DNA from: a virus
Taxonomy: Duplodnaviria; Caudoviricetes
Reading direction: 5' to 3' (one strand)
Virus record (IMG/VR): IMGVR_UViG_3300032270_001157
Location: 1-64,000 of that record
Length of the DNA stretch: 64,000 nucleotides
Positions 4,133 to 60,100 of the stretch are shown piece after piece. The notes beneath the pieces were generated by a model. That model did no database searches and was not told the DNA's origin. It saw only the letters and a program-made list of their open reading frames with translations. Made by a program: the position numbers and the translations under genes. The number at the start of each line of letters is the position of its first letter. Within the stretch, counting starts at the first letter, position 1.

Positions 4133-4330
4133 ATGGCAATGCAAAAGTTTATGGACGTAGCAATCGGTGCAACTTTTAGACACGAAGGTAATGATTACCG
4201 AAAAATTCCAGAGGAGAGAATTAGCTGTTGTTCAGCTATTAATGCTCAGGGAATCAATAATGATCAACAAAGAATTCAAGTTTTACCATTAGTAGAGGTC
4301 GAAGTCCTAGGAGATACCACCCAAGCATGA
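4133..4330 (+). CDS. Small hypothetical protein (65 aa) between the dnaE halves
   Basis: AGGAG SD at 4121-4125. Its stop overlaps the next start (ATGA). Confidence 0.75.
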   Translation: MAMQKFMDVAIGATFRHEGNDYRKIPEERISCCSAINAQGINNDQQRIQVLPLVEVEVLGDTTQA

Positions 4331-16006: not shown

Positions 16007-16472
16007 TTCCCCATTTATCTACAGGGCATTTTTGGTCTTTGTGAGCTAGTTTGTTCTGGTGGTTGGCTTCTCTTACAACTGTACATCCACACAATAAACA
16101 AGAATTATCTTTAAAATACTCACAGGCATTGCATATTGATAATCTTTGATCTATTTCCTCAGCGGAGCAAAGGTTTTCTGGAGTATTTTTAGCAGCTTTT
16201 TCTTTATCTATAGCTTCTTGTTTAATTTGATCCAATAAAATACTACCCATATTATCTGCCCCAGAAATATGCTGAGGCTTTTTCAGACTAGGGTTGTCGG
16301 TATGATTAACGTGTATTTGATGGGCTAAATCTTCTAGCTTTTTAAAGCACATAATTTTAGTGTCAGGTTGTTCTAACCCGACAGTCAATCCACAGTATTT
16401 ACATTTATAAAGTGGTTTATTATTAAAGCTAGTATCTAAGCTTTCTAGATCACAATATGCTGTTTTATTCAT
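15981..16472 (-). CDS. Cys-rich small protein
   Basis: CKYC and RLSICNACEY..CLLCGC...CPVDKW. ATG 16472 overlaps the upstream stop. Confidence 0.75.
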   Translation of the reverse strand: MNKTAYCDLESLDTSFNNKPLYKCKYCGLTVGLEQPDTKIMCFKKLEDLAHQIHVNHTDNPSLKKPQHISGADNMGSILLDQIKQEAIDKEKAAKNTPENLCSAEEIDQRLSICNACEYFKDNSCLLCGCTVVREANHQNKLAHKDQKCPVDKWGTILPIQPY

Positions 16473-24474: not shown

Positions 24475-24482
24475 TTGATTTC

Positions 24483-29933: not shown

Positions 29934-29944
29934 AATTTATCCTA

Positions 29945-31621
29945 TTAAGGGTCTGTTATACACTTCACCCATTCCCATGATTTAATCTTAGTGAAACGTC
30001 CTTCGCTCACATTCCAATTAGATTGATCCGCTTTTACATAAGCTCTTACACCACGAACGTCTGGATTATTTGTTAAATTGGTTGGATTAAAACTTTCTAC
30101 TATTCCTGTAATAGCTTTATAATGTTCGATTGGAAATGTTAAATTTCTTAATCCGGTTGGTCTCGGTAATACTACTTCAAAAGTTACATTTCTATTAGAA
30201 GCACTAACTGTGCCAAGGTCTTGTAAAATAGGGCCTAGTTTTCTTCCTAATACAAAAATAGACGCAACAAGAGGTAAAGCAAAACCATCTTCAATAGATA
30301 ATGTTTCGCTAATTGAACCAGCAATAAGATTAAGAGGTCTATTATTAAAAGACCAACTATAAGTAATAGTTCCTTCTGAGGGATTCATTCCTTCTGTGAT
30401 TGTTACTGGAATTGGATTTAAATTAGCTTCATATCTTGTAACAGCAGGATTGAATGTACTAAAAGCATTAGTGAAATTAAAACCACCAGTACTAGCAGTA
30501 GTTAGTGGGGCCGGAGTAGTTGTTGTTGGAGTATTACGAACATTATATGCAAAACCAGCAGCCCTATTATACATAGCCATTTTGATACCGCTATAACCAC
30601 TAACAGCATAGTAAAATTTTGTACTAGTATTATTATTGAATTTCAGAGTGTTGTTGTTATATAGATCCGCGATAGAACCACTCAGAGACCCAGATAAATA
30701 AGGAGCATTATTAACATTGTATATATTTCCACTATTAAAAGGCTCTAATCCCTTAACTGTCCCATTAATAGTTACAGTTCTTAACATAGAAGTATCTAAA
30801 GTACTTTCTACAGTAAAGGTCTCTGTATATGGTTTTAGTCCAGTACCAGAAGGCACTCCCAACCAATTATCTGTAATTTTATAAGATCCCTCAGTATCAC
30901 TAGAACTGATACTTCTGACAAAATTATACAAAACTAGTCCACTAATCATTCCACTATATTTAACACTATTATTTAACTGATAATTAACCCAGTCTTTAGC
31001 ATTTTTAACAGGACTATCTCCCGATACCATGCCTCCAGTTCCAGTTGGAACAAATTTACCAACTGCTCCTAAAGTTCTAGAAATACGATAGAACGGATAA
31101 TTTGAACCAACACCAAATTCTATATTGCCTCCATAGCCTAATAATGCAGCATTTAGTGGGGATTTAGCAAAAGAATTCTCTTCTAGTGTCTCTATGCTCC
31201 AATCATCTTGGGTGCTACTAACATAAAATATTCCACTACCAGTATTCATTACTTCTGATTGTAATTCAATACTATAGTCTATGGTGGTGGTCCAATTATC
31301 ATCTGTGCGACTGGCCGCATATTTATTTATTTTAATACCAGAATATATTGTGGTGGTACTTCCGCAACCTATAGTTAAAGTCTGACCATCACTAGAAAAA
31401 GCGTTTCGTAATCCGCTTTCTAGTACCAACAAATGATTAAAACCAGCATTACCACTACCAGTATAAATTTTACCTTCTAAAGAAATAGATACCAGAGCAC
31501 CAATTGGTCTACCAGCACCATCTCTTTGTTGATCTCTAGAAATACCCACAAATGGAACAGGATATCCACTAACTCCGGAAAAACTAAAGCCCCCGTACTG
31601 TATAAATGCTGATGTTGCCAT
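29945..31621 (-). CDS. Putative distal tail (Dit-like) protein
   Basis: Lies downstream of the TMP. Repeated tube-like beta motifs (ISLEGKI, YSIELQ, GTITYSWSF). Confidence 0.45.
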   Translation of the reverse strand: MATSAFIQYGGFSFSGVSGYPVPFVGISRDQQRDGAGRPIGALVSISLEGKIYTGSGNAGFNHLLVLESGLRNAFSSDGQTLTIGCGSTTTIYSGIKINKYAASRTDDNWTTTIDYSIELQSEVMNTGSGIFYVSSTQDDWSIETLEENSFAKSPLNAALLGYGGNIEFGVGSNYPFYRISRTLGAVGKFVPTGTGGMVSGDSPVKNAKDWVNYQLNNSVKYSGMISGLVLYNFVRSISSSDTEGSYKITDNWLGVPSGTGLKPYTETFTVESTLDTSMLRTVTINGTVKGLEPFNSGNIYNVNNAPYLSGSLSGSIADLYNNNTLKFNNNTSTKFYYAVSGYSGIKMAMYNRAAGFAYNVRNTPTTTTPAPLTTASTGGFNFTNAFSTFNPAVTRYEANLNPIPVTITEGMNPSEGTITYSWSFNNRPLNLIAGSISETLSIEDGFALPLVASIFVLGRKLGPILQDLGTVSASNRNVTFEVVLPRPTGLRNLTFPIEHYKAITGIVESFNPTNLTNNPDVRGVRAYVKADQSNWNVSEGRFTKIKSWEWVKCITDP

Positions 31622-31642
31622 AATTAGTCCTGTAATTTATTC

Positions 31643-34600
31643 CTAGTTCAAATACAATGGATCACTACCAATATGATTCAACTGATTAATTTTTGCTGTG
31701 GCTGACCAAATGGCAGTATATCCTGCTGCTCCACTAGCTACGATACTTAATCTAGGAGGATTAGAGTCAACAACTTGTGTACCAATTGACATGCCAGCAG
31801 GCATAGTGTCTCCATATGTTCTGGTAAGTTCTGTTCCCAATTTAGAAAATCTAATACCACTAGCTGTTCTAATAAGGGCACCTTCGATAAAGATTCCAGC
31901 GCCATTTCTAGTAGCATTTGGATTAACAGAACTAGAACTACCTAATTGCCATAATGCAGAGATATCTATCTTGTAAGTCCAAACTCTATCATATTCATAA
32001 CTTGTAGCATCAGAGAAAGCACTTAAATTAATGCAATTTGCTGTTGTTTCTGTGGTCACAACAGTACTACCAACTGCTGGTTTTGTCCAATCAGTTACTA
32101 GTGGTCTAACTTGTCCACCGTCTGTAGTGCGAGTTCTAAGATAATATTGAGCATATTGTGAGGAGCCGTTATACTTCTCATCAGATGCCTTAATTGATCC
32201 GCCAGCAAAAACATGGTTATGTCTAGTTTGTGTGACTTGTGGTTTATAACCAAATTCTATACCTCTTACACTATTGGGATCATTAGCTATTGTTTGATTT
32301 TGATAAACTTTTAATCCACTAGAGCTAACCCAAGCGTCTCCTCTCCAAATTAGCATGGTGCCATCATTATTGGCTCCCATATTAGTGCCATCAGTTAACT
32401 TGCTACTAAGTCCAATATCTACTCTAAAGGAAGCATCTCCTTGTGAGGTATATGTAATATTCATTGGATATAAACCAGAAAATTGTGTTTTCAAGTCTAT
32501 ATCACTAAAGCGTAAATTACCAAACTGGTCGGTTCTTAAATAATAACCAGAGGCAGTGGCACCCTCTCCGATTTTTAAACTCTTGAACCATGCTTTACCA
32601 TTGGCATAAAGAACAACTCCACTGCTATTTGAATTAGCAATATCTGATGATGAAGCATTGATAGTCACGGATCCAGTTGGACTAATGTGAAAACCTATGC
32701 GATTATTTAAAGAACCAGAGTTGATGACTGAAAATTTATTTCCAAGTCCACGATTATTAAATACTGTATCAATACTATCGGTAGAACTTAAAATGATATT
32801 GTAGAAACTATCTGGGATATTAGTAAACAAGCTGTCATAAGATACAATTCCAGTAGCTCCTAAAGCTAAAGTTTGCTGAGAATTAATCCATCTTATACTA
32901 GTATTTCCAGTAGCCCATGAGTTTTCGTTGGCGAAAATAATGCTATTAGCTCTTGTTGCAGCCGAGTTGAGCCTACCACTATTATTAACAAATAAGAATG
33001 TTCCAGTGAGACTGGGAGGTAAATTAACTCCACTATTAACAGTGAAATTATTAAAGGTTCCTGAGTTACCACTTACGTTATGGAAATCAATTCTTTGATG
33101 ACCAAAATTGGTATCTAATAGAACTCTAGCAAATTCAACTCCGCCACTACCCCTAACTCTTAGTCTGTATGTTGACGCTTCATCATTAACAAAGACACCA
33201 GTAGAAGTAATATAAAATCCATTATTTCCACCAAGGTTGAAATTCATTTGTTTAGTGCTGGGACTATATAGTATTTCAGAAATACCACTAGCTACTTTAT
33301 CATTAACTCTATACATTAACCCAGTATCTGTACCAGAGATTCTCACAGGTAGCTGCCATGTTCCAACACCATTAGTGTTAGTTGTTAATACATAAGCATC
33401 TGGAGCAGAGAATCCGACTCTAAGAGATGAGGTCGTTGTTAATCCACTAACTGCTAGGTCAGAAGTGGGATTATCAGTATTGATACCTACTCTATTAGAA
33501 TTAAGACCGATATTTAAAACACTAGTAGCATCATTGCTAGACTTAACAACAAAATTATCCTGTACGGCCCCTGAATTAAAGACCACCTTATCATTGTCTA
33601 ATATCATCTTATTAGAATTATTAGTACCCATATATAGAGTATTATCAGCTAGTCCACTAATGTTATATCCTATTACAACATTACGAACGCCAGAAACATT
33701 ATTATTATAACCCACAATAACGCCACTACTATATAAGTATGTGTTATTCGTTCCAACAACTATATTATTAGAACCATAGATTGGGTTGGTTTCAGTTCCA
33801 CCAGCACCACCTAATCGCTGATATGGCATTACTAAACCACTAACTATAGTTGTGTTGGGACTATTATTATCATCAAAAGCATTATTAACAGAATAATAAC
33901 CATTTGCTCTATCTATTGCTACAGGGGCTCCGATAGATATTGTGGTAGTGTTATCAATACTATTTTCTACTACATTAGAGATTTCTCTAACAAATGTATT
34001 ATTAACAGATGGTGGACTTTGAACACAAAGTAAAATCTTGTCTCCCACCAAATACTTGGATGTAATTCCTAGTGTTGGTACAGTGATATTAAGACCAACA
34101 CTATCTACAACACACTGATTTCTTGTGGACCCTAAAGTATTTTCACGACCATAAACGATATTATTGATACCGTTCAATTTATTTGCTGTACCTATTATGA
34201 TGCCACTAGACACCATTTGATTATAGCCTACAACAATATTACCACTACCAAATACGTCCATTTTTGTGTTTGCAGTATTAAAGACCATAGATTCTTGGCC
34301 TACTACTGCTATCTTTGATCCAACAGTTCCTATCTGATCTCCAACTAAGAAGTTTGAGTTACCGATAGCATAAGCATTAGAAGCATTCTTTAAATTATTA
34401 TAGGAACCAATGGCGCTAATATTAGATCCAGATGCAACATTCTTGTTTCCTAAAATTACATTACTATTACCAGACTGTGCTAAATTGTTAATACCAACAA
34501 TGATGGAATTATTTACTGTCCCAGCTGTTCTACTAGGGTTGCCGCTAATAGCGCCTACCGAGTTAATATAGACACCAGTTTGATTATTTAGTATACCTAC

Positions 34601-35986
34601 GACTAAGTTATTATTGCTAGTTGGAGGAACAGCATTGATACTACCTAATACTAAATTATTACTAACTGTACCACTTAAATTATTAGTATTGCCTACTACA
34701 AGAGAACCATTAATATCTCTAAGAACATTAGCCTGACCAATTAATAATAGTTGGGATGGCGCACCACTAGCAAGATTATTATTAATACCTAAAAGAATAC
34801 TTTGATCAAGACCAGAATTAGTAGCGTTACCTAGTCCGATAACAATAGACTTGGTAGTATCTTGCAGATTGATATTATTACCAACAAAAATACCACTAGA
34901 AATATTAGTGAGTGTTTGATCAGAACCGATACAGATTAGCTTGGTGCCGGTAATTACGTCTGAGCTACCATATACTTTATTAGAATTTCCACTTAGACTA
35001 ACATTAGAACCTACAACACTATTATCGTTACCAAGTAAACTATTAACATTTCCAATATAAATATTATTGTTGCCAGTATTGCTGACATAAGAACCTAACA
35101 CAACACCAGAAGCGCCAGAACTCACACCAACCTGAACTAGTCCAACGCTAGTAGAAGTATTCAGACTATTATTACTTCCTAAAAGAATATTATAATTGCC
35201 AGTAATACTACTAGAATTACCAACAAAAATATTGGATAATCCACTAAGATTAACCGAATCACCCAAAGCAGTATTATTTGCACCAATTAACCTAGAGTTA
35301 TTTACTAGAGCAAAAACTTTGGCTCCATTAAAATAATTTGAACTACCGATAACGATACCAGTATTAGATATTCCTGTGTTACTTGAACCGATATTTGTTA
35401 ATCCTACTCCCGTTACAGCATTACTAACACCTACTACTGTATATGTATAGCCGGATACGCTATTACTACCACCAAGAATTACGTTTCTTAAATTAGCACT
35501 AAATACAGGCTTATTGGTTCCTTTATCATCAACAGTAAATAATATTTCACCACTAGTAGATCCGGTAACAGGATCAAGAATCTTGGACATGATCTGTCCA
35601 TAAACAACCTCATTATAGTTAGTATCTCGACCGGCTAAATTAACAATAGCAGGATAACTACCAGAAAGTGGAGTAGTTTGTGGATTATGCACTAGTAATA
35701 GAGTTACGCCGGTAGGGCAGTTTGTGATACTCTCTACAATCAAACCATCTTTTGAGCATGGAGCTACAACGTGTAATACAGCATCGGGTAATCCTGTTCC
35801 AACTCCTAGTCTACCGGTAGAAGCATCAAAATATACTAATCCATTGCCGGTGCCACGAATACTAAAATCAATATCTTGTTTAAGAGCATTAAAAGAAGTA
35901 CTAATACCAGAAGTTTCTGATAATATAATTGATGGATTAACACCAGAACCAACATATAGTGTACCAGATACTGTTTGACTACTCAT
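31643..35986 (-). CDS. Tail fibre/adhesin with YadA-head-like Gly/Asn repeats
   Basis: Long run of (I/V)xxGxxN repeats at about 33690-35500, plus GRLGVGT..P and RVGINT..P fibre motifs. Confidence 0.7.
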   Translation of the reverse strand: MSSQTVSGTLYVGSGVNPSIILSETSGISTSFNALKQDIDFSIRGTGNGLVYFDASTGRLGVGTGLPDAVLHVVAPCSKDGLIVESITNCPTGVTLLLVHNPQTTPLSGSYPAIVNLAGRDTNYNEVVYGQIMSKILDPVTGSTSGEILFTVDDKGTNKPVFSANLRNVILGGSNSVSGYTYTVVGVSNAVTGVGLTNIGSSNTGISNTGIVIGSSNYFNGAKVFALVNNSRLIGANNTALGDSVNLSGLSNIFVGNSSSITGNYNILLGSNNSLNTSTSVGLVQVGVSSGASGVVLGSYVSNTGNNNIYIGNVNSLLGNDNSVVGSNVSLSGNSNKVYGSSDVITGTKLICIGSDQTLTNISSGIFVGNNINLQDTTKSIVIGLGNATNSGLDQSILLGINNNLASGAPSQLLLIGQANVLRDINGSLVVGNTNNLSGTVSNNLVLGSINAVPPTSNNNLVVGILNNQTGVYINSVGAISGNPSRTAGTVNNSIIVGINNLAQSGNSNVILGNKNVASGSNISAIGSYNNLKNASNAYAIGNSNFLVGDQIGTVGSKIAVVGQESMVFNTANTKMDVFGSGNIVVGYNQMVSSGIIIGTANKLNGINNIVYGRENTLGSTRNQCVVDSVGLNITVPTLGITSKYLVGDKILLCVQSPPSVNNTFVREISNVVENSIDNTTTISIGAPVAIDRANGYYSVNNAFDDNNSPNTTIVSGLVMPYQRLGGAGGTETNPIYGSNNIVVGTNNTYLYSSGVIVGYNNNVSGVRNVVIGYNISGLADNTLYMGTNNSNKMILDNDKVVFNSGAVQDNFVVKSSNDATSVLNIGLNSNRVGINTDNPTSDLAVSGLTTTSSLRVGFSAPDAYVLTTNTNGVGTWQLPVRISGTDTGLMYRVNDKVASGISEILYSPSTKQMNFNLGGNNGFYITSTGVFVNDEASTYRLRVRGSGGVEFARVLLDTNFGHQRIDFHNVSGNSGTFNNFTVNSGVNLPPSLTGTFLFVNNSGRLNSAATRANSIIFANENSWATGNTSIRWINSQQTLALGATGIVSYDSLFTNIPDSFYNIILSSTDSIDTVFNNRGLGNKFSVINSGSLNNRIGFHISPTGSVTINASSSDIANSNSSGVVLYANGKAWFKSLKIGEGATASGYYLRTDQFGNLRFSDIDLKTQFSGLYPMNITYTSQGDASFRVDIGLSSKLTDGTNMGANNDGTMLIWRGDAWVSSSGLKVYQNQTIANDPNSVRGIEFGYKPQVTQTRHNHVFAGGSIKASDEKYNGSSQYAQYYLRTRTTDGGQVRPLVTDWTKPAVGSTVVTTETTANCINLSAFSDATSYEYDRVWTYKIDISALWQLGSSSSVNPNATRNGAGIFIEGALIRTASGIRFSKLGTELTRTYGDTMPAGMSIGTQVVDSNPPRLSIVASGAAGYTAIWSATAKINQLNHIGSDPLYLN

Positions 35987-41900: not shown

Positions 41901-44900
41901 GCAACACTTTGAACAGCTTGGAAGATAGTTTGTGTTTGTCGTGATGACTGAGCAACTTGTTGCGATGACTGAGCTGCTCTTTGTAGATTTTGATCAATAA
42001 TTCTAGCAGAAGCTGCTGCTATATCTGATGTGCTATCTCTTCTGGCTCCTTGAGGAAGAGGACCTATTAAAGTAGCATTGGAACGAGCAGTATCTATCCT
42101 ATTTTGAATATAGCTATCTGTAGCTACTTTTTGGCTATTCTGAGCATTTTGTCTAGCTTCTTGAAATCCCATTCCTTTAGATCTATTGAAATTTAAAGCT
42201 TGTTGGTAAATTGCGTCCCCAAACTGCTCTATTTCCATCATTACTTTTTGTATTCTAGCTTCAACATCTCCTGGATTTGCTGATCCACCTACATTAAATC
42301 TTTGTATTCCACGAACAGCACCACCAGAACGAAAGCCTAAAGCCTTTGTTGCAGCTTCACGAATAATGAAACTACCTACTGGTAACGATACTGGTCCAAT
42401 ACTATCACTAGTTCCTGATCCCGGACCCTTAAAAACACCAATACCTCCAGCAGAGAACGAACTCATTCCATTACGATCTGCTTGATTCATTTCTCTTAAT
42501 TTGCCATATCCTATTGCTTTTGCTGTCTCTGGTGGAACAAAAGCTTCTCCATTAGAAACCATAGCTGGAACATTTCCACCCGCTGCATATCCTCGCATTT
42601 TCTTGAAAGATTTTTGATCACTGTTAATCTCGTAATCTCTAACAGTGCGACCATCTTTCTTTGCATAGTCTGCAATTCTATTTTGTTTATTTATTATTGC
42701 TGCTCCAACTTTTTCTTGAATAGCAGAAGGCGGAGCTTTGTATGGTTTTAAAGAAACAGGCATAGGAATTGATCCTTCACCAAATCCTCCTACTTTCCAC
42801 TGCTCTCCATAACCACCGGGAACAGGAATTTGTTCCATAAACTGAGCTTCAGTTAAACCAGCCTTAATAATATCTTCTAGACTATACTTAAATCCTCCTC
42901 TTTGAATTAATTTTGGAGTTCCTCCTTCAGCAAACCTTTGAATAGCTCCACCACTCTTATATCCTTGAGTTTTTAGATAAGTAATAATATTATCTTCTAC
43001 TGTTGATGGTCCACTAATAGTTCTTTTTGCGTCTGTTGCTATATTGCCTGGAATACCAAAATATTTAGCTGCCCCTTTTAATCCCTGTGGAAAGTCCATT
43101 CCTTGACCCTTAAGCGCTCCTGGCCCACCGAGTTTCTGAATCATTTTTTCAAACAACACACCCTGAGCCGTAGCTTCTGCATTAGAATTGCCTGAGATTT
43201 TCCTATTTCCATAACGATATGCTTGTATGCCTTCTTTGGATCTTGCTCTTGCAGCTTTAATATTTCTAGCATCATCATCAACAAATAATGAGCCTGGACT
43301 TAATAACGCTGCTTTAAGTTTAGCTATTTGAGATCCAGATACTCCTGGTCCTCCTAGTCCCTTAAATTGGGTAAGGGGGATTGGAAGTCCCTTGCTAGAC
43401 AACCATTCTTGAACTAAGTCTAGGGTTGAAGCAGGTCGTGCTGTTATGAGTTTTAGATTGCTTAATAGCTCTGGTTTTTTAGATACGAGACCAGCTAATT
43501 CTTGTCCTAATGCGCTTAATTTGGCGCCCCTTAGTGCGGCCGATACCTTGTTTCTATCTCCAAACTCAGCAAACTTGGGAGTTCTTGGGTCAGATAAAAT
43601 CTTGTCGGCACCGAAGGCTAATGTTCTATCAAAGTCTAGATTTAATTCTTTGCCAAGACCAGTTTTAGCTAGAATATCAGCAATCATAACCTTTTTAGCG
43701 GCTCTTCCTGCACTTTTATTAAGGGAAGAATTAAAGGATTCTTCTATAGAACTAGCTACCGCAGGATCCATTATGCCACTAACAATTCTAACATCAACAG
43801 GAGCTTTAAGCTGATCAGAAGTGATTTTTTTATTGATTGGAGAGAATGGAGACCCTAACATACCAGCCGCCCCGAATAATAATCCCTTAGACGTTATTCT
43901 GGTTGTTCTGGCTTGTTGCGCTCCAGATAATCTATTTTGTTTTTTGGTGAATTCTGCTAGAATAGCTGCTTTACTTGCTGCTTGGGCTTCTGTTGGAGCG
44001 CGCTTATTTAATGTAGTATATACATCTGTTGCACTAATACCTCCAGCCTTAGCAGCTGTTTCTAGACCTAATAATTTAATGATTTCACTAGTTGTTGCTT
44101 TTTTACCAGATGTTGGGGTTACTACGCCAGCATCCGCAAATTTAGAAATTGATCCGCCACTAGCAAGATATTTTCTCATTTCTTGTGTGGTCTTTTTTCT
44201 ACCAGCTACATTCTCTAATTTATAAACACTTTTTTCTTCAAACCCCTTAATTAAATTAGTTGCATCTGCTTTACTTAAAACATTTTTAATACTTTTTGAT
44301 AACAGACCGGGCATAATCTTGCTGACATCATTAGCATCTGTATCATAAAATGTTGGATATGACGCAACAGAGTTTGCTAGTTCTTGTTGAATAGCAGGAT
44401 AGTTATTGTTTAATAATTGTTGAGCTATTGATGAGGACTGCCCTGTGAATCGATATTTTTTACCACCAGACTTTAATGTTTTAAATACATCCTTAGATCT
44501 AATATAAGAAGCAAGTTTACTACTCAAAACTCCTTGTAAATCTGGTGCCTTAGCCCAATTGCTGTTCCATGACTGTGGTAAATCTAAACCCATATTTGAA
44601 TATATGCCAGCAACGGATAATTGTTTTTTCTGTAAATACTTTTTCAGTTTAGGAGAAAAAGAGTCTGGTTCCAGTCTAGCGTCTAAATGAGTAAAATGAG
44701 TAGCTGATGATGTTGGGAGTTCTTGTTTTTTCTTTGCTGCTTTCCCTGCTCCAGCCCTGTTTAAATCATAAAGTCTGTTGAGCCCAATATTACGAACAGC
44801 CTTTTTGTTCATAACAAACTCTCCCGGCGTTAACATTGCCGGAACAACATCTCCGTCTCCATAACCCGGAACATGACCACCAGAAGCAAAGGCTCTAATT

Positions 44901-46471
44901 GGTCCACCTTGACTATTTCTATTGGGTCTCATTCCACCAATAAATCCTCTACTAAACTGACCTAGTGCAGATAATCCTCTTAATGCGAAAATAGCTCCTA
45001 AAGCTGGTAGTGCTCCTTTAGCAGCATCTGTGAGTCTAATTAAATTACTAGTTAAGTCTAAAGATAGTTTAACGAAGGATTGAAATCCAGAGCTTTGTCC
45101 AATAGATCGAACTAAACCTACAAATTCATTTCTTACTTTTGCCATTTGAACAGCTAATGATTGTTGTGCTGTTGCGGCATCAGTAGCTAAAGAGTCTTGT
45201 CCTGTTTGAGCAACTTTTAATGCTGCTTGGGCAGTTGCGAACTGTTGAATTAATGGAATCACCTTACCAATCTGACGAAAGCCACCAAGTTCTTCTACGA
45301 TTCTGGAGAACTTTAAATCTCTGGGGTCTAATTGAGATAATCCTTCGCTCAATCTTCTAACAGCCTCATATGGTCCAACGAACTTACCTTGTAAATCTGT
45401 TAATGTAACACCATATTCTTTAAGGGCATCGATTGTATCCCCTCTTTGAATTCTGGTAAAAATTGTTCTTAAACCAGTAGCAATGGTTTCGGCGCTTTCA
45501 CGAGTTGTAGCACGAACACTGGTGAACACAGCCATGAATTCATTTAGGGCTTGAGTACCTTCACTAACTCCCTTACTAGCTGTAGCAAACACACCACCGG
45601 TACGCTGAATAGCAGTAATAATGTCACCGGCTTCAACAGCAAACTTAGCAGCTACCGCATTTACTGAACCTAATGCTCGATCTAATTCGCCAGCACTAAT
45701 ACCGAACTGTCTCATCAATGCGATACTACCTTCTACGGTACTATTCAAGTTATCGAATGATGGAGCTAATGCACTAAGAGCCAAAGCTTTTAATGCCTTC
45801 TCTGTATCTCTAGCACTTAAGCCAGCCTGAGCCAATGTACTAGATACTTTAATTAATTCATTAGATGACACACCGAACTTAGTAGATAAATCAGTAATTT
45901 CGGCAACTAATCCACCAAGATTTTTAACTGATGTATCAGTAACCTGAGATACTCTAACCAATTCTTGATTAAAAGCAATAAAGTCTGTTGTTGCAGATGT
46001 TAGGGCGTTAGATACTTTATAAATCACTCCTGTTACTGTGGCAAAGGCGGCAAATCTACGAACAGCCAATGCTGACTGCTGACCAAACTCTCTAAATGCT
46101 GAAGTAGTCCCATGAACAGCAGCAGTAGCAGCAGCATTTTGTTGAGTTACATTTTGTGTGGCATTATTTATTTGTTGTAAATTAGCTGGTAAATTACCAG
46201 CACTATTATTAACTTGTTGTATAGCAGTCCCAAGATTTCTCAGAGATATTGCTGTAGCGTTTGCTGAAGCATTAGTGGCCTGTAGAGTATTATTAAAAGC
46301 TCTAAAAGTTTGATTAAGAGCACCGATATTGCGGGCCACACCGGGATCCAAGCGAACATTAACATTAGCATTAATAGTTCCTAGTTGTCGCCTAATATCG
46401 GCAACAATAGTCCTAATGTTAGATGGTCCTCGTAAATTTAACTCAGCTGTAAGATTAAAACCTCTAGCCAT
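35999..46471 (-). CDS. Tail tape measure protein (3490 aa) with cargo domains
   Basis: N-terminal TP901-type core (ELVRVSQVT, LAQAGLS, ATTRESAETIATGLRTI), a Gly/Ala-rich hydrophobic segment at about 41570-41760, coiled-coil regions and repeated PAMLTPGEFV modules. Confidence 0.92.
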   Translation of the reverse strand: MARGFNLTAELNLRGPSNIRTIVADIRRQLGTINANVNVRLDPGVARNIGALNQTFRAFNNTLQATNASANATAISLRNLGTAIQQVNNSAGNLPANLQQINNATQNVTQQNAAATAAVHGTTSAFREFGQQSALAVRRFAAFATVTGVIYKVSNALTSATTDFIAFNQELVRVSQVTDTSVKNLGGLVAEITDLSTKFGVSSNELIKVSSTLAQAGLSARDTEKALKALALSALAPSFDNLNSTVEGSIALMRQFGISAGELDRALGSVNAVAAKFAVEAGDIITAIQRTGGVFATASKGVSEGTQALNEFMAVFTSVRATTRESAETIATGLRTIFTRIQRGDTIDALKEYGVTLTDLQGKFVGPYEAVRRLSEGLSQLDPRDLKFSRIVEELGGFRQIGKVIPLIQQFATAQAALKVAQTGQDSLATDAATAQQSLAVQMAKVRNEFVGLVRSIGQSSGFQSFVKLSLDLTSNLIRLTDAAKGALPALGAIFALRGLSALGQFSRGFIGGMRPNRNSQGGPIRAFASGGHVPGYGDGDVVPAMLTPGEFVMNKKAVRNIGLNRLYDLNRAGAGKAAKKKQELPTSSATHFTHLDARLEPDSFSPKLKKYLQKKQLSVAGIYSNMGLDLPQSWNSNWAKAPDLQGVLSSKLASYIRSKDVFKTLKSGGKKYRFTGQSSSIAQQLLNNNYPAIQQELANSVASYPTFYDTDANDVSKIMPGLLSKSIKNVLSKADATNLIKGFEEKSVYKLENVAGRKKTTQEMRKYLASGGSISKFADAGVVTPTSGKKATTSEIIKLLGLETAAKAGGISATDVYTTLNKRAPTEAQAASKAAILAEFTKKQNRLSGAQQARTTRITSKGLLFGAAGMLGSPFSPINKKITSDQLKAPVDVRIVSGIMDPAVASSIEESFNSSLNKSAGRAAKKVMIADILAKTGLGKELNLDFDRTLAFGADKILSDPRTPKFAEFGDRNKVSAALRGAKLSALGQELAGLVSKKPELLSNLKLITARPASTLDLVQEWLSSKGLPIPLTQFKGLGGPGVSGSQIAKLKAALLSPGSLFVDDDARNIKAARARSKEGIQAYRYGNRKISGNSNAEATAQGVLFEKMIQKLGGPGALKGQGMDFPQGLKGAAKYFGIPGNIATDAKRTISGPSTVEDNIITYLKTQGYKSGGAIQRFAEGGTPKLIQRGGFKYSLEDIIKAGLTEAQFMEQIPVPGGYGEQWKVGGFGEGSIPMPVSLKPYKAPPSAIQEKVGAAIINKQNRIADYAKKDGRTVRDYEINSDQKSFKKMRGYAAGGNVPAMVSNGEAFVPPETAKAIGYGKLREMNQADRNGMSSFSAGGIGVFKGPGSGTSDSIGPVSLPVGSFIIREAATKALGFRSGGAVRGIQRFNVGGSANPGDVEARIQKVMMEIEQFGDAIYQQALNFNRSKGMGFQEARQNAQNSQKVATDSYIQNRIDTARSNATLIGPLPQGARRDSTSDIAAASARIIDQNLQRAAQSSQQVAQSSRQTQTIFQAVQSVASKTTGFISSSISSLRSKVMGPSDEEVGNMSDAQRAQYDAKRNRRASYMNTGLALAFAAPMAAEAAGAAVGGSTGRGVAAAGTAFGGAIAVGAQAGPWGALAGAIAGTVLAVDSFRNAIKEADIDLSKKKIENSATTAEGQLEKLNKNPRDAALTSSIVKNFKDIAAEEEKISAKQAELRQPSMLTRGLEAASFGFYKASRPTNAQIGEEETANQKVGGEIALKTLAAKVESGLNIEQALSSFGGDQGLAKLNIAQTNKQFNTKNQELEALKKTAGQDPQIRAEIEQRQKELIDTYFKEETATLQATVAERARVTALQQSARVLNLSSVSIAKTFENMDQAIDSATTGLDRASQRIDDIASGQVSLKTQFQSTDILKNPNAYSARERQTAVSQVSGMFGTDKKFVEGLSTFGASAEDTITRIAVQAQQTGASGEVLGENITRDLTQQLINTFGDNRISDAIRNQLKGAVKDNIKQNDGVLDPQSLIDSVGGLKQLIDSQKKAFDTMMKQYAFIEKALDTYGNAVQKAAELQTQATAKFASLQGYLSDSMVSLREALGEGRRTSLTERSAGRYTEAAINAGVKPGSLTAANLTNQRTMLINQRSSVEGNIERLNSSGNLADPAVISLIAKQKDALASLNRQIEATEKGLEGLPDLIKQDMQDTLSKIGQLVQERESRTQAGASFGEKLVTSTPTELRNLNSTYDLLNRTLNGQITTINQSISAQQAYRKTIQDGGTNLEAMAAAQDAFAADAKNSFSLFNEMIQVSGLDTTDKQRANTLRADLIQNTARAQGLNVENNPFLKEILANLRAAPAQDPQIKALENLYKQQQMALGEATQRAINPLLEKQGQILNTANTALISALDKLTNAFNGAQTNNQNLGLARPGTVMTRSQGGPVYAAGGTLVNYEPRGTDTVPAMLTPGEFVVNRQATQRNLPLLKSINAGNYAKGGVVYLSGGTMDPLADTWDSTIANYMSDFANKVKKVEEMAPTDPRAKAWLDNYRNWINSTSQRGAYSSQGALEMASNYKSPKLPGWLTSTMDGLDNLYQGVKSVGSNISSAIKNPRAASTTALKYIGTQASGAARMAAPYVGRLIGPTFGAISGAMADPNKTGRNRAVNTVLGVVTGTGETMGDVGAHSLLGRATGVQQGTMLDTQLGNFSQLGLTTGYYMGFGLDPATAGLIASANMLTQETVGLYGDAKKMHTSNNNTDRMLKNSTISSSADDPLAEFKLNVMDRRDAERLAEFNIESRRLQKGAKPRKDAVGNLMTQAFIDQQISNIYDSLNSEDTISVPFGRDRKVVKGRNTHSTNEVFQSAVSAQEQYLERQHAASEEARIAKIEEKKQAEQAAQERKREQELENQRVQARASSSVFRIDGRDVDAATVATDTSMPGDTYGLTASAQRGKNKVDTANRIRNQAENQREANRWVHQPATPGPVKLKSGQTVDPNKQTQSLNKKKKDKELELEQYSFVDPADMTEEQKKDKERLLRERDQINSEIIKLNRMIAVDVPMRERDQQWKMHGKKQEQDANKAQIAASNRANAKRFRLELAVGQAVGMGAPNKFTSPEAFMGWREQALSKLKKKFNLTGSNKIDEKLLTQYGLSAGAAQDLFHPFTPDQAEALIQAMSQETSGGNYKYSARDIAILRMNPDQIEALALRINNGDTYLQGNMDERKKLEKAQEKTFSKLLRNFSSIDRMAARGQGMNRAQQAMLKNNISKQLTKMGYINPQNSDEDNAARLAPFNINNTVGFLYPQVAAGNPAFRSSGGMIYASRGTLVNYQPRGTDTIPAMLTPGEFVVNRQATQQNLPLLQSINGGVNHMSRGGMAYLSEGGIPGVRSGSMFNLGQIFISLSQTTKQFTNSLQLAVSMLSDYQKQLSSGTTNSVSNNTGSNNPNMDGLSQFTNTFNKFIGQLAALNLPPQITIQGTHKVEVVINGGAAFANMQEPIQRMILGEVNVAMNKLAIQTEGVLRT
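36480..36625 (-). repeat. TMP internal repeat copy (TLVNYQPRGTDTIPAMLTPGEFVVNRQATQQNLPLLQSIN)
   Basis: Near-identical in protein to the copy at about 39085-39230. More diverged copies lie at about 44800-44890 and 42350-42590. Confidence 0.9.
39085..39230 (-). repeat. TMP internal repeat copy (TLVNYEPRGTDTVPAMLTPGEFVVNRQATQRNLPLLKSIN)
   Basis: See the partner copy at about 36480-36625. Confidence 0.9.
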
Positions 46472-52227: not shown

Positions 52228-53172
52228 TTACCAACTACTATGAGCAGAACGTCTCCAGAGATTGTTTGCTATACAAATATATAAGTATGATGAATCCCAT
52301 ACTATATCTCCTGGATTTCCAGAAGAGGATGAGGACGCTATCATTCTATATGGTATATTAGTAGTGGATCTAGAAAAATCTATAATATCAGATAAATAAT
52401 GTTGGTGTCCACTAATAGCATAATTACCAACAGGCTGTGGAATGTAATTTAAAGCCCCGCTAATATCTGTAAAAGATAAATTCACAACACCAGATCTAGA
52501 ATTAAATGATGTAACACCACTGTTTCCTAAGGAATCAATAGTGATAGTATTAGAGCCATTATCGTAGTAAATATTAGTATATCCACTACCAACAATATTT
52601 AATCTATCTACGGTAGAATAATTTATAACAGACGATGAGCCGTTACCAATTGTAAGATTGTGTGTATGTCCGCTAGCAGCATATAGTCCTGTTGGTTGTT
52701 TATTATCTAGAGCTAGTTGCAAGCCGCTCACTTGGTCAATAGAATGAGTATGATTAACCAGACTATAATTACCAGAAATCTGTGGAACATATCCTAATCT
52801 ATTAATAATATTGGGGGCAGTTAAGAAGCCAGAACCAGAGCGACTCTCAATAATTAATCCCTTTGAGGCACTATTGTAAGAAATAGTTGTATCCCCGGAA
52901 CCCAAAACATTTAAATATTCTCCACTGGATAAATTTACAGCAATTCTCGGATCAGCACCATCTGCTATAGATAAATAAATTTGCGGAAAATTAATTGTTA
53001 CTGGTGGATTATCAATGTAGGATAGTCCAGACCATCTAGTGACTCCATCTCCAACCTTTATATATCTGGTCTCTGTTTCATATCCGGGTTCTCCTAGTCC
53101 TAGAATTGGATTAGCAGACATCCATTCTCCACTCGGCGCTCTTCTTAATCTTATTCTACGAAAATCGCTCAT
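52228..53172 (-). CDS. Fibre protein with Mtd/hyaluronidase-type N-terminal domain
   Basis: IRLRR..EWMSANPILGLGEPGYETETRYIKVGDGVTRWSGL, three HxH motifs and C-terminal GNPGDIVWDSSYLYIC..WRR. Confidence 0.8.
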   Translation of the reverse strand: MSDFRRIRLRRAPSGEWMSANPILGLGEPGYETETRYIKVGDGVTRWSGLSYIDNPPVTINFPQIYLSIADGADPRIAVNLSSGEYLNVLGSGDTTISYNSASKGLIIESRSGSGFLTAPNIINRLGYVPQISGNYSLVNHTHSIDQVSGLQLALDNKQPTGLYAASGHTHNLTIGNGSSSVINYSTVDRLNIVGSGYTNIYYDNGSNTITIDSLGNSGVTSFNSRSGVVNLSFTDISGALNYIPQPVGNYAISGHQHYLSDIIDFSRSTTNIPYRMIASSSSSGNPGDIVWDSSYLYICIANNLWRRSAHSSW

Positions 53173-55628
53173 AGTTTTTTGACTCCAAAAATTATTCCTG
53201 AAACTTCTGAAACTAACCAATTTTGTTGTGTTACTGGATTTTTATTCATGTAATATTGATAGGTTTTATAAGTGGTTTTATTTACAGAATGTTCTGGGCC
53301 TATTTCTACATAGTCATCTATTTTAGTTTTAAAAGGCTCGGTCGATGGAGTAAAGCTATCAGTATAACGAGCTACTCCGGAGGTTATTCTAAATTCATCA
53401 ATATATCCTCCTTTACCAATAGCAGCTAAGTTTGCAACAACCTGATTATATCCATCACTAAAAAATTCAGAATAAATATTAGAAGAATTATTAAGATTCG
53501 GTGAGTATGTGGTACTGAATGTGCCTGTTGTTTCAAGAGTACTTACGAAATTAGACATATTTCCACTATTAGCTAAATAGTAAGAATTACCTGGTTCCCC
53601 ATTCAGATAACAAATAATCTTATTAGCACTATTCCTTGTAATAGCAACATGATGCCAAGTTCCTGTAGTTGCTGTGCTTGGAAAGAATAATTGTCTCTTT
53701 ACCATAGCCTCTGGTGAGCTTATATTCTGAAGTGGGACACCACCATCGTCACCAACATATCCAAAAGTAGATAGGTATTGTATACCACTAATATTAGCAG
53801 CAAACGAGTAGGTTCTAAAGGAATAAAGAGGAGTATTGTGTAGTGGGATTTTGTCAAATAATGAAATATTGGTTGTATTATTAGGAAAATATATCCAAGA
53901 TTCTATTGTAAAAGGAGAAGTAGATAGGTCTGGATAGTTATTTAGATATAAATAAGAACTTTGATTTCCAAAACTAATACTTCTAGTTCCTATTTTACTG
54001 GGAGTAGTAGTAGATGTTACATTACCCGTATAACTAATTGGTCTTAAATATGTAGAACTATCCACAATGGGACTAGATTCTCCACGCAATAATAATGTTA
54101 CATTAGCTTCATAAATGTCACTAGTCCCAGAGTACATTACATTAATGAATTTGGTATCCAGATATTTTTTTCTAGCGCTATTATAAATTTTCATACCACC
54201 AATAGTATCATTCAAGTTTCCTCTCCATGCTGAATTCGAGTCAAAACGATTGAAAGTGTTATATTGTAAATAGTTAGGTTGGCTCATTTTAATTGCGTCT
54301 ATATTTCCACTAGCAATAGTTTCTATACTATTTCCATCTGCGTCTGGTATTAATAATGCTCTTCTATGACTACTAAAGTCTGTAAAAGAAGATGAATTAT
54401 CATTAGATATTATTCTTGGGGCTCCAAGAGACCATTTTAATAATCCATCGGAACATGTTCCATTATCTACTAAGTTACCTCCACAACCAGGAAATATAGA
54501 CATAACTTTTGCAGAACTACCTAGCCAGAAGGAGGGTGGAGGATCGGTATTATCTATTAAAATTAAATCATCTAGCAGCCATGTTCTACCTTGCATATAA
54601 TACCAAGAATCTTTCCAGCCTCCCTGTCCTGGGTCTGATTCTGTTATGCCATTCATTACAGAACTAGAATATGTACGATTATAAAAACGTAAATTATTAA
54701 AATTAAATCCACTTATAGGTAAACTTAAATCCCATGATGATTTGAGTATGTTAGAATCTGGATTAACAACTGGTAAATTAATATCTTCAAGATTGATATA
54801 TAAAAGAGGGGGACTAGAAGACTGGTCTACAGAAAATTCTAAATGGGCCCATCGACTAATCATAGCGCTAAAACCAGGACCAGAGTTGGTGTCTGTTATA
54901 GTTAATATTTTATTATTGGTAGTATTAAAAACAGAACTAATTTGATAACGATTAATTAAGCCAGAAATATTTAGATCGAAGTAACCTAGAGTTTGATTAT
55001 TTTGTTGTATTTCTAAAGCTAGAGTAGTTTTTACATTATTAATAGGTGTTAAATTATTTCCAGTAATTTTTACAACATTAACTGTTAAAGCAGGTAAGTC
55101 TCCACTATTATAGCTAAATAAAGTATGTCTGTATGGATATGTAGAATAATCACTATTCTTAGATTCTAATCCCAGACATCTCATAGATAAGTAAGAAATA
55201 TTTCCTGACGGAAGAGGAAATCCACTAGCTTGTAAATATGTTGGGGTTTCTAAATTATTACTATTTTCTATATCTATATTTGTAAAAGCTAAAAAACCAA
55301 GAGGACTTCCAAAACCAGGATAACTATTTTTAGTAAAAAAATATGTATAATAATATGAAAAATATGCTCTATCATCCACATATCTGCCGCTAGGTACTAA
55401 TCCATTAATTCCTTCTGGAGTACTATAGTTATAAACAAAAGAAAGTTTAACAGGATCGGAATCGTTCCCGACATAGAAGGCTGGATCGGCTCTATTATCT
55501 AATGAGATAGGAGTATAACCGCCAAAAGCATATTTAGGAAAAGCTTTATATTGAGTAGACCAGTATGTGGAATCTAGCTCATTTAGAACTACTCCTTTAT
55601 CAAAACCTTCAAAAAATAAAGTAGACAT
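53169..55628 (-). CDS. LamG/concanavalin-like domain virion protein
   Basis: FTIESWIY, WHHVAITR, CYLNG and GYIDEFRITSGVARY. Confidence 0.85.
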   Translation of the reverse strand: MSTLFFEGFDKGVVLNELDSTYWSTQYKAFPKYAFGGYTPISLDNRADPAFYVGNDSDPVKLSFVYNYSTPEGINGLVPSGRYVDDRAYFSYYYTYFFTKNSYPGFGSPLGFLAFTNIDIENSNNLETPTYLQASGFPLPSGNISYLSMRCLGLESKNSDYSTYPYRHTLFSYNSGDLPALTVNVVKITGNNLTPINNVKTTLALEIQQNNQTLGYFDLNISGLINRYQISSVFNTTNNKILTITDTNSGPGFSAMISRWAHLEFSVDQSSSPPLLYINLEDINLPVVNPDSNILKSSWDLSLPISGFNFNNLRFYNRTYSSSVMNGITESDPGQGGWKDSWYYMQGRTWLLDDLILIDNTDPPPSFWLGSSAKVMSIFPGCGGNLVDNGTCSDGLLKWSLGAPRIISNDNSSSFTDFSSHRRALLIPDADGNSIETIASGNIDAIKMSQPNYLQYNTFNRFDSNSAWRGNLNDTIGGMKIYNSARKKYLDTKFINVMYSGTSDIYEANVTLLLRGESSPIVDSSTYLRPISYTGNVTSTTTPSKIGTRSISFGNQSSYLYLNNYPDLSTSPFTIESWIYFPNNTTNISLFDKIPLHNTPLYSFRTYSFAANISGIQYLSTFGYVGDDGGVPLQNISSPEAMVKRQLFFPSTATTGTWHHVAITRNSANKIICYLNGEPGNSYYLANSGNMSNFVSTLETTGTFSTTYSPNLNNSSNIYSEFFSDGYNQVVANLAAIGKGGYIDEFRITSGVARYTDSFTPSTEPFKTKIDDYVEIGPEHSVNKTTYKTYQYYMNKNPVTQQNWLVSEVSGIIFGVKKL

Positions 55629-56016: not shown

Positions 56017-57171
56017 TTATTCTGGTCCGCCATTTGCATCTGTGGTGTCTCCAGATAATATCATAATATTTTCTCCAACCTTCACCAATGTAGCAACAGA
56101 GAATTGTCCAACTAATTTAGAGTGGCCTAGTCTATTTGCTAATCCAGCACTGGTAAATCTTACTTGTCCGGAACCAAGTTGGGAAACCAAGCAATTAAAT
56201 CCTAAAGATAAATTATTATTGAATTGAACATTAATTGAGCGAACGTTATTGGTAAAAGTTAAAACTTTTCCATTATCTGCTTGAGATATTGTGTAACCAG
56301 AACCAGATATACTTTGTAGAGAGGCTGAGAATCTTGTTAGTTGTCCATCTCCTAAAGATTGTGTTCCAGTAAAACTATTTCCCCCACTTAGTTTAGCAAA
56401 AAGACCAGACGATAGTGTGGCTATATCTCCCAATCCCAAGGTGTCTCTTTGAGCAGAGGCTGACGCATCGTTGATTAATATCTTTCCGGCATCTGTTATA
56501 GATATTGTTCCATATTTATCAACTCCGGTTCCACAAATCAGCTTATTTTGAGTCATAGACAAATTACTAAGCTCATTCAGTCTATTACTATAGGCTTGTA
56601 CATTTGTTCCAATAGTTAATCCTGTAACTGATATAGTTAAAGCATTAAGGTCTTGATCTGCATAACTTAGTTGAAGATAATTACCCGGCTGTAGTAAATT
56701 CGCTACTCTATCATCTACCGATTCATTAAAATTATCAATATCGCTGGGATTGTGATGATGTCCTATTGGAGAATATTGTGAACTCAAACTATCAGATGAA
56801 ATATTGATAGTTTTAGTATTGGGAACAAATGAAACAACAGTGCCTCCAGCTCCAACAATATTCAAAGTATCATTTTCTTGAATAGTAATATTACCAACAT
56901 TTAATTTGGTTAATCCGGTCCCCGGTGGACCCTGCAAGCCTGATGGTCCGATTGGGCCGCTTGGTCCTGCTGGACCAACTTCTCCACGCAAACCGCTTGG
57001 ACCTGTTAATCCAGTTAAACCTCTCTCAACATAAACAACACCAACAGTATTATCAAAACCATCTACTATATTAAGGTTTGTAGTAATAACACCGGTACTA
57101 TCAGAACCATCTATGGATTGATTAATAACTAAAATTTTAGGAGATGATGGTGTGATATTAACAGTAGCCAT
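56017..57171 (-). CDS. Collagen-like tail fibre protein
   Basis: About 11 G-X-Y triplets at about 56920-57021, an HxH motif and a C-terminal fibre domain (YTISQADNGKVL...LVSQLGSGQV). Confidence 0.85.
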   Translation of the reverse strand: MATVNITPSSPKILVINQSIDGSDSTGVITTNLNIVDGFDNTVGVVYVERGLTGLTGPSGLRGEVGPAGPSGPIGPSGLQGPPGTGLTKLNVGNITIQENDTLNIVGAGGTVVSFVPNTKTINISSDSLSSQYSPIGHHHNPSDIDNFNESVDDRVANLLQPGNYLQLSYADQDLNALTISVTGLTIGTNVQAYSNRLNELSNLSMTQNKLICGTGVDKYGTISITDAGKILINDASASAQRDTLGLGDIATLSSGLFAKLSGGNSFTGTQSLGDGQLTRFSASLQSISGSGYTISQADNGKVLTFTNNVRSINVQFNNNLSLGFNCLVSQLGSGQVRFTSAGLANRLGHSKLVGQFSVATLVKVGENIMILSGDTTDANGGPE

Positions 57172-57187
57172 AATTTAATTTTTATCC

Positions 57188-60100
57188 TTATGGTTGATTT
57201 AAAGTTACTGTTGTGGTAGACAAGCCAGTATCATCGTAAGCTTTAATAGTAAAGCTAGTTGCATTTCTCCAATCATATCCTACAGAATTATTACTAGATA
57301 AACTAATTGTTAATCTATCGGTAACACTATTGTAAGAGTCATTCATATTTTGAACATTTAAAGTTCTAGTAAAATTACACATACTGTTATTAATTAATAT
57401 CTCTGGAATATTTTTATCAATAGGTCTAACTCCACCATCTATTTCAAAACTAAGGCTCCATGAACCATTATTATTCGTAATACCAGAAGAAATCACAGAC
57501 GGAGGTAGAATAATTTGTATAGGCTTATTGATAAATAGTGGGTATTCTGTTACGTATTTTTTAGGCACTAAAGTAGTTCCAGAAAAAGCTGGGAGACCAG
57601 TATTCTCTAAGGAAATCATCTTATAAGTATAGTCTTTATATAGTCCTGTGGGAGTTCCGCTCAATCCAAATCTCCATTCTCCATCTTTAATTTGAGTAAT
57701 GTTATTGATATTAATTTGATCATAATAATTTTTTCTAAGATCATAAAAGCCAGATATACTCAACCCACTAGAGAATGGATAATTAGTAGGACCACTGAAA
57801 GAAGCTACCAGAGTTCTGTTGTCTCCAGAAACTATTGATAGCCTATAGTTAAAAGGTAAAAGATTGTTGTTCTCGGTAGAGACAGAAGAACTATCCAATA
57901 TGTCTATGTAGTTTCCAGTAACATAAGATAGATTATTATGTTTAATTGTTATTAAACTATTATCGATAGATTGTATGAAGCATTTATCTTGTGCGGTTAC
58001 TGAGCCAGAGATTGCTAATCCATTTCTTTGGAAAGGTAGACTGATATTAGTAGAATAATTACTTTCTAAAATTATACCTGTGGTAAAAGACAGATCTCCA
58101 CTGAAAGTTAAAGTAATAGAATCATTAGGATTAAATCCTGTTGGTAAAACAATATTAAGATTTTGCCCATTAACTCCACCAAGGAAACCAGAATGTAGGT
58201 ATGTGCCAACCAAGATTTTTTTATTGAGTTTTTCTTGTATCATGCCAGTAAACGATGGGAGATAGTCTATTAAACTCCAAACGCTGTTATCTTGTAATTG
58301 ATAAAATGGAATTTTTTGACTACCACCACTAAATGGAATATATCCACCAATTGCTCTAATAGAGTATCCTGATATGGGCTGTCCACTCATGCAACTAATG
58401 CTATTTTTGATACCAGTAATGATAACTGGGGGGAAGCTCGATTGGATTGGATTATCATCTCTATTTCCTCCCTTATGAATCCAAAAATATTCATTTTCCG
58501 CATAGGGTAGAGCGTTATATTTGTAAGTTGGAAATGTGTCGGATGGCTTATCGATGAACAAAGATAAAACAGCACCAGAATTAAAAATATAATTGAATTG
58601 AATTGGTGTGCCGCCAGCAGCACCAGCAGGAGAGGTGGATGCAGAACCACTATTGATAGGGATGCCTGAAGCGCAATGTTTAATCAGATAATTAATAGAT
58701 ACTGGTCTAAAGTTTTCAGCTAGTACTTTTTCATATTCAGAATTACCATAAGCACATTTACTTAAGAGAGAATATGCCTGATTATTATATGAGAATGGAA
58801 CACTGTCTCCTCCTTGTGCTGGTGGAGGAGCGAATAATTCTACAGATGGCTTTGGAACACTAATTCCACTGATTCTAATATATCCTGTTTCCCAGCAATT
58901 AGAAGTTTTGATAGTATAAACAGTTGGGTCAGCACTATATTCTGGAATAGGAGTTACATTTAATCCTGAGAATGAAATGTCATTATTATTAAAGCTACCA
59001 GATAACGGTATAGCAGCGATAAACGATGGCTTCATTCTGCCAAATAAACCATAAGATGGTGGTCCGCCAACACTGGGCTTAAGCTTGAAAGTACCACAAC
59101 CCATAATACCAACAGTTGTATTTGAGTCTAGTGTACCATTAAACTTTTGCATATTAGTTGTATCATATAGCCTAAATGTGGATTTAACCAATCTACCAGT
59201 ACCAGTGGTAAATGTATGTCCTGGTACTACTATATAGCCAGAATTACCTATGGTTTGTGCTCTATATCCTCTATTAAATTGGTGAGAAGGATTATTATCA
59301 AACTCAAAATAAGTATCAGAAGAATTATTCGAGCCGATGTCTATTCTTGTGTTAGAGATATATACTTTAGTATCACCTGCTTCGTAGTTTCCACCGCTAT
59401 AGCTAAAAGTAGAAGTTTGGCAATTAGAGTGTGGTAGAATACTGGTGCATAATAATGAAACTGGGTCTGATGGTGGCCAATATGTATTAAAAGATAAATC
59501 AGATAGAGCCATAGTTCCTGATGGTTGTTCTACATTATTTATCTTTAATGCTCTTGGAGTATAAGCAGGTTTGTTATTTTCAAAATAAACAGTAACATTG
59601 ATTGGAGATGCAGGATTTGCAGTAGAAGTATCTGTGAAAGTAAACTGTTTATTTGCAGACTTATTTCTGGCGTCAAACACAGTTAAAGTTAATTTTTCAT
59701 TATACAAACCACCACTAGCAAAAGTTGATGGAACACCGTATATTCTTAAAGTGCCGCTAGATATATTATTCCATGGGGCAGAGGGCGCTCCTCCTGGGAA
59801 GGTGATACTATAATTTAGACCGGGAGGCAATGATCCACTAACTATCCACCCAGTAATACCTGTGGGGATTGGACAGCTTCCTCTATTTCTGATACCAAAC
59901 CTATAAGACCTATCAATAGAAACATCTCCGCAAAGAGGATATAATTCAATAGGATTCTGAGCCTGCTGAGATGGAGCCTCTATAATTTGTGGCGATGGAT
60001 GTGTTATGCCAGCAGCATCTAAAGAAGTATATAGTATAGAAGAAAAAACTGTATCAGAATCTAAGTACCGATTTTGGTTTGTGTCTGTGTCTATTGCGGT

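Follow-up and report, generated by a model that had tools for sequence, protein, structure and literature searches.

A predicted HAD-type phosphatase domain as an optional cassette in a giant phage tape measure protein

We found that the giant tape measure protein (TMP) of an uncultured tailed phage (Duplodnaviria; Caudoviricetes) contains, at amino acids (aa) 929-1094, a HAD-superfamily phosphohydrolase domain with a predicted Rossmannoid three-layer fold. As judged from comparison with its relatives, this domain is an optional in-frame cassette that lies between flanks which are contiguous in relatives without it. The DNA analysed here, the window, is a stretch of 64,000 nucleotides that makes up the first 64 kb of the 86-kb IMG/VR virus record IMGVR_UViG_3300032270_001157 (completeness ~58%; G+C ~35%), and the TMP, P0001, is encoded on its minus strand. 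We consider it fairly probable that the cassette rides in the TMP as a small-insert phosphohydrolase, is ejected with it and would act as a Mg-dependent phosphomonoesterase early in the host.

Catalytic motifs and predicted fold of the HAD domain

In the minus-strand translation, all four catalytic motifs were located in the HAD order and in frame within a single open reading frame (ORF) (Table 1). When the four motifs were written, in order, as one regular expression, this pattern matched P0001 at a single place (aa 945-1066) and matched 8 of 5,000 shuffles of the same protein. To describe conservation, we searched 1.84 billion cluster representatives exhaustively with phmmer and obtained 83 clusters at 50% identity. 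D946 and D948 of motif I were present in all 83 clusters, and T950 was present in 82 of them. In motif II, position 1010 was always a threonine (70 clusters) or a serine (13 clusters), and A1011 and R1012 were kept in 83/83. The original prediction had named a lysine of QIAKLK as motif III; this residue is the second lysine, K1053, which was found in 83/83, while the adjacent K1051 is not conserved. In motif IV, D1066 was retained in 85/85 and D1065 in 84/85, the single replacement being a glutamate. The catalytic positions hold even though overall identity drops to approximately 30%, an argument that the active site is functional. Read from these alignments, the HAD-type catalytic set (D946, D948, T1010, R1012, K1053 and D1065/D1066) is complete and is maintained by selection.

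The family alignment (A2) contained 13 sequences and was built from the DNA references of 12 loci. AlphaFold2 modelling on this alignment gave a pLDDT of 89.2 and a pTM of 0.85 for the HAD segment. In this model, each motif occupies the position that the HAD mechanism calls for (Table 1). A Foldseek comparison of this predicted model with the PDB, a check that had been proposed with the original prediction, returned HAD enzymes throughout, with a best E-value of 1e-4. Four HAD motifs inside the TMP, as originally claimed, were thus borne out, being in frame in one ORF, near-invariant over 83 clusters and accompanied by a predicted HAD fold, and the motif coordinates given were accurate to within a codon. 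The location proposed for the domain (43230-43660) also held, but the indels in relatives indicate a slightly wider extent (43190-43687).

When the Foldseek matches were aligned with VIA-align, the T4 Pnkp 3'-phosphatase (5uj0) ranked first (Z 11.9, root mean square deviation 2.9, 125 residues), followed by AphA (Z 10.7 over 156 residues), Pnkp1 (Z 10.5) and class C acid phosphatases (about Z 10). A search of 48,161 chains that was independent of Foldseek returned HAD enzymes almost exclusively, in a near-identical ranking (5uj0, Z 11.6), and the best named matches in a viral structure library were phage phosphatases and PNKP phosphatase domains. The best solved fold matches are the C-terminal 3'-phosphatase of T4 Pnkp (PseT; PDB 5uj0, 1ltq) and Clostridium Pnkp1 (4xrp). 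The largest coverage of the model was obtained with the class B/C acid phosphatases (AphA; e(P4); the P. multocida and B. anthracis enzymes) and plant vegetative storage protein, which aligned 150-157 residues with the N-terminal helix and the helical insert included (Z 9.4-10.7), versus approximately 125 residues for T4 Pnkp. By rank, the Pnkp type is the closest fold, and the acid phosphatases lie within approximately 1 Z unit, a near tie. The domain had been described as cap-less and PNKP-phosphatase-like. The second part of this description agrees with T4 Pnkp as the nearest solved fold, but the domain is not strictly cap-less, because in the model short helices amounting to approximately 40 residues separate motif I from strand 2. 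According to the model, the domain is of a small-insert type nearest to the phage Pnkp-phosphatase/T5-Dmp group and the class B/C acid phosphatases.

Like the TMP domain, T4 Pnkp presents DxDxT, (S/T)-x-R, K and DD in the same order and is a phage-encoded small HAD. In contrast to T4 Pnkp, which is a free early enzyme, the TMP domain is embedded in a virion structural protein and has no fused kinase, and its spacing from motif I to motif II is 18 aa longer (64 aa versus 46). Direct sequence comparisons gave little sign of homology between the two: the family hidden Markov model (HMM) gave 0 bits on T4 PseT, and hhalign aligned motif IV alone (FVDDD versus IDD; D277, D278), with a probability of 7%. 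With T5 Dmp, a deoxynucleoside-5'-monophosphatase, the same HMM aligned 76 residues at 8.1 bits, and this weak collinear similarity covered motif I, a D..G..D...Y insert and the T-A-R of motif II, but it is not significant database-wide. The T-A-R of the family parallels both VSGR of T4 Pnkp and CTAR of T5 Dmp.

Links to named families were found in some members of the 13-sequence family. PF00702 was found in 2 of them (E 0.019), phrog_415 was weakly matched by 4 (E 0.0057), and phrog_2643, a 5'-3' deoxyribonucleotidase family, was matched by 3 (best E 1.7e-4). T5 Dmp (E 4e-57) and the phosphatase domain of T4 Pnkp (E 3e-24) are both members of phrog_415, a family that gave no match in the present genome, the window's own domain included. 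As far as these searches reach, the HAD family escapes current Pfam and PHROG models. Neither tblastn nor blastn matched the HAD segment to any phage in INPHARED, and the scanned GTDB bacterial and archaeal genomes contained no relatives of it, so that they offered no prophage or host clue.

The cassette among giant tape measure proteins

P0001 belongs to the TP901-type TMPs, as indicated by its PhageMin_Tail core (PF10145), its matches to the tail length tape measure families phrog_28 and phrog_167 in a PHROG search, and its conserved gene order. In the relatives L009 and L010, genes of approximately 346, 97 and 290 aa likewise precede a giant TMP; family searches gave no match for the genes adjoining the TMP. 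Hydrophobic Gly/Ala segments are located at aa 486-505 and from aa 1575 onward. There is no cysteine among the 3,490 residues of the protein.

Nearly all of the 83 clusters are proteins of 2,000-7,900 aa in which the match lies approximately 900-2,400 residues from the N terminus, and the short family matches that were checked came from contigs of 1-4 kb. The HAD family is almost confined to giant TMPs of uncultured phages on contigs of 100-250 kb, and all relatives are annotated with PF10145 only. The TMP block at aa 1-570 is far more widespread, being common to more than 1,751 proteins of 1,919-6,108 aa. Among 91 further core relatives, drawn from the best 120 of these more than 1,751 proteins, the HAD domain was present in 11 and the module directly downstream of it in 67.

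Comparison by blastp with relatives lacking the HAD domain placed the two flanks 166-169 aa apart in P0001, and in four such relatives the flanks are separated by gaps of 1-35 aa (Table 1). A larger exchange was seen in P0110, which is 92% identical to P0001 over aa 1-581 and collinear with it again from aa 1296, with an unrelated 770-aa segment in between. This swapped segment lies exactly between the first two PAMLTPGEFV-type modules. Four such modules are present in the TMP (window positions 44813-44842 and 42539-42568, and aa 2437 and aa 3307); they correspond to phrog_35029, whose function is unknown, and each adjoins Gly-Gly motifs. A search for direct repeats around the cassette revealed nothing beyond imperfect matches at chance level.

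We also placed the presence and absence of the HAD domain on a FastTree phylogeny of the TMP core (184 proteins, 103 of them with the domain). The character switches at least 21 times on this tree, versus 51-69 times with shuffled labels; the HAD domain itself was the route by which half of the sample had been collected, and recombination may decouple the TMP core from the cassette, which qualifies the count. The cassette is dispensable for making the tail.

Table 1. Coordinates of the TMP gene, the HAD cassette, its motifs and its surroundings
Feature	Residues of P0001	Window position	Strand	Basis or remark
HAD-fold phosphatase domain (cassette), predicted	aa 929-1094	43190..43687	-	AlphaFold2 and fold matches; edges from clean indels versus HAD-less relatives
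Motif I, LDFDRT	D946 (nucleophile position), D948, T950	43622..43639	-	follows model strand aa 943-945
Motif II, ITARP	T1010, then R1012	43433..43447	-	T1010 ends model strand 2, aa 1006-1010
Motif III, Lys	K1053	43313..43315	-	model helix aa 1046-1055, before strand 4
Motif IV, FVDDD	D1065, D1066	43271..43285	-	end of model strand 4, aa 1062-1065
TMP gene (P0001)	single ORF of 3,490 aa	35999..46471	-	ORF list and translation
PhageMin_Tail (TP901-type TMP) core	aa 191-384	45320..45901	-	PF10145, E 1.2e-24
Variable slot, first to second PAMLTPGEFV-type module	aa 582-1295	42587..44728	-	comparison with P0110
Upstream flank	aa 772-928	43688..44158	-	abuts downstream flank in HAD-less relatives; blastp versus P0171, P0130, P0108, P0112
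Downstream flank, E1108 ... D1126-F-P ... D/E1147-x-K1149-R-T	aa 1095-1192	42896..43189	-	alignment A3
Flanks in P0171 (HAD-less)	upstream aa 772-925; downstream aa 1095-1192			gap 15 aa
Flanks in P0130 (HAD-less)	upstream aa 772-928; downstream aa 1095-1181			gap 10 aa
Flanks in P0112 (HAD-less)	upstream aa 758-939; downstream aa 1101-1212			gap 1 aa
Flanks in P0108 (HAD-less)	upstream aa 795-914; downstream aa 1095-1184			gap 35 aa

Probable delivery, possible substrates and rival explanations

TMPs are usually seen as rulers of tail length, sometimes with wall-degrading motifs. Because the HAD domain is part of the TMP polypeptide, it would be stored in the tail tube, in about three copies and probably not fully folded. 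It would then be expelled along with the TMP at DNA ejection and, before any phage gene is expressed, could act as a Mg-dependent phosphomonoesterase through an aspartyl-phosphate intermediate. The likeliest substrates would be nucleotides (deoxynucleoside or nucleoside monophosphates, as for T5 Dmp) or nucleic-acid ends with a 3'-phosphate (as for T4 Pnkp), the data being compatible with either.

Delivery into the host is probable by analogy with one published precedent, the TMP-fused RNA polymerase of the Thermus phage P23-45. The TMP of this phage, gp96, has 5,002 aa, and its N-terminal part is a virion RNA polymerase whose activity was shown experimentally and for which injection and action at the entry pore have been proposed (Chaban et al. 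2024, PMC10770324). Like P0001, gp96 is a giant TMP with an N-proximal enzyme that does not act on the wall, and it therefore provides an architectural precedent for TMP cargo directed to the cytoplasm. However, its enzyme is a two-barrel RNA polymerase, and beyond both being TMPs no relatedness of the two proteins is indicated. The original prediction had regarded known TMP enzyme cargo as mainly peptidoglycan hydrolases, which overlooks this polymerase (PMC10770324). A TMP-derived carrier with exchangeable functional domains has also been described for the Sle1-type effectors of actinobacterial contractile injection systems (PMC13277306); these are not phage tails, and their functional domains sit at the C terminus and have no relation to HAD. 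In the literature that we searched, no report of a TMP with a HAD or phosphatase domain came up, and a survey of polyvalent proteins (PMC5512222) mentions neither TMPs nor phosphatases.

Several observations weigh against the reading of the cassette as an ejected phosphohydrolase. First, three copies of a folded domain of approximately 18 kDa would be a tight fit in the lumen of the tail tube. Second, the window's HAD domain had no Pfam match at E-values up to 10, and PHROG and PDB sequence searches with this domain alone gave nothing meaningful. The best match of a profile search against PDB sequences was a HAD protein at an E-value of 0.36, so that the assignment to HAD rests on the predicted structure and the motifs. 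Third, that the catalytic residues come together in space is deduced from their placement on the secondary structure of the model. Finally, the lineage is known from uncultured-phage sequence alone.

The substrate could be a nucleotide. As a T5-Dmp-like or class B/C acid-phosphatase-like nucleotidase, the domain would dephosphorylate deoxynucleoside or nucleoside monophosphates, or else a signal or metabolite derived from nucleotides, at the very start of infection, an explanation that is possible without being the probable one. It agrees with the better alignment of the family HMM to T5 Dmp than to T4 PseT, with the phrog_2643 matches and with the coverage of the model by class B/C acid phosphatases (Z 10.5-10.7). 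In addition, Dmp acts at the earliest stage of infection, as a pre-early T5 function according to its record annotation; it is expressed from the first-step-transfer DNA, unlike the TMP domain, which would be carried in the tail. On the other hand, every one of these sequence links is below database-wide significance, and the few enzyme copies delivered per infection would do little for bulk nucleotide turnover. Motif IV of the TMP domain is moreover DD, unlike the GDxxxD form of AphA. The class B/C enzymes are secreted free enzymes and share 9-16% identity with the domain among the matches listed.

An end-healing role of the kind suggested in the original prediction, in which a polynucleotide 3'-phosphatase as in T4 Pnkp would repair tRNA or DNA ends cut by host anticodon or abortive-infection nucleases, appears unlikely to us. 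T4 Pnkp as the top solved match, followed by Pnkp1, the parallel between T-A-R and the S-G-R of T4 Pnkp, and the weak phrog_415 matches are all in keeping with it. However, end healing also requires a 5'-kinase and a ligase. A scan of the 86-kb record, itself 58% complete, gave no PF13671, PF09414 or PF09511, although the PF09511 control was uninformative, and reading of the flanking sequence showed no apparent Walker A motif. The HMM and hhalign results for T4 PseT likewise speak against this role, as does the net charge of the domain, which is not conserved and varies from -7 to +15 across the family.

It is improbable that the domain acts on the envelope, that is, that it stays with the TMP in the periplasm or cell wall and dephosphorylates a phospho-sugar or lipid-linked precursor so as to aid penetration. 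In favour of such a role, the top fold matches include the class B/C acid phosphatases, whose place is the periplasm or the outer membrane, the TMP is free of cysteine, and the known TMP enzyme motifs target the wall. Nevertheless, we know of no HAD enzyme that assists phage penetration, and the domain is optional among close relatives, so it is not required for entry as such.

It is equally improbable that the domain catalyses nothing in the host and instead acts as a structural spacer, helps assembly or works only in the producing cell, to be removed before packaging. In favour, packaging and ejection of the HAD part of the TMP are deduced, and TMPs are processed in some phages. However, a spacer would not hold catalytic residues in 83/83 to 85/85 clusters, and the TMP has persisted through at least 21 gains or losses of the cassette.

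Under the favoured reading of the cassette as an ejected phosphohydrolase, a more specific purpose can be proposed. The cassette, possibly together with the flanking E...D...(D/E)xK module, could be a pre-made takeover or counter-defence enzyme that is injected and acts before phage transcription, for example by taking phosphate off a pool of nucleotides, an immune signal derived from nucleotides or nucleic-acid ends left by cleavage; we put this forward tentatively and hold it to be doubtful. If it were true, giant TMPs would be exchangeable carriers of enzymes directed to the cytoplasm, beyond wall hydrolases. More generally, an intact, selected and freely gained and lost HAD domain in more than 80 giant-TMP clusters suggests that TMP-borne enzyme delivery is broader than P23-45 and modular. 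The small size of the domain, its confident predicted fold and the obvious inactive control D946N make the idea directly testable at the bench.

Flanking modules and other genes in the window

The downstream flank is itself a conserved module, in which D1126 and K1149 were found in 86/86 sequences and D/E1147 in 85/86. Profile, Pfam, PDB and Atlas searches with this module were without match. In an AlphaFold2 model of the extended segment (aa 921-1190), it consisted of helices only, with pLDDT values of 42-61. Its near-invariant residues follow the order of PD-(D/E)xK, and the module occurs without HAD in most core relatives. The upstream flank and the downstream flank may together form one domain into which the HAD domain has been inserted.

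Downstream of the TMP gene are four very large genes that encode proteins of 1,447, 558, 1,816 and 2,674 aa (16465-35986, minus strand). They had no Pfam match, and the 1,447-aa product was also without a PHROG match; they presumably encode tail-tip or fibre proteins. On the plus strand, two genes share a DnaE-type Pol III alpha, one with PHP and NTPase parts and the other with finger, HHH and OB parts, and an RNase T-like exonuclease gene sits between them (2256-4130, 4327-5028, 5021-6652). The replication-side module holds a gene for a PDDEXK_1 nuclease and a neighbouring pair of genes for group 1 glycosyltransferases (1157-2197, 7156-9941, plus strand). The tail tube and TMP block is preceded upstream by fibre-like genes with tail-fibre PHROG matches and by an ORF that exceeds 2,250 aa and runs off the window (52228-53220, 56017-57171 and 57188-64000, minus strand).

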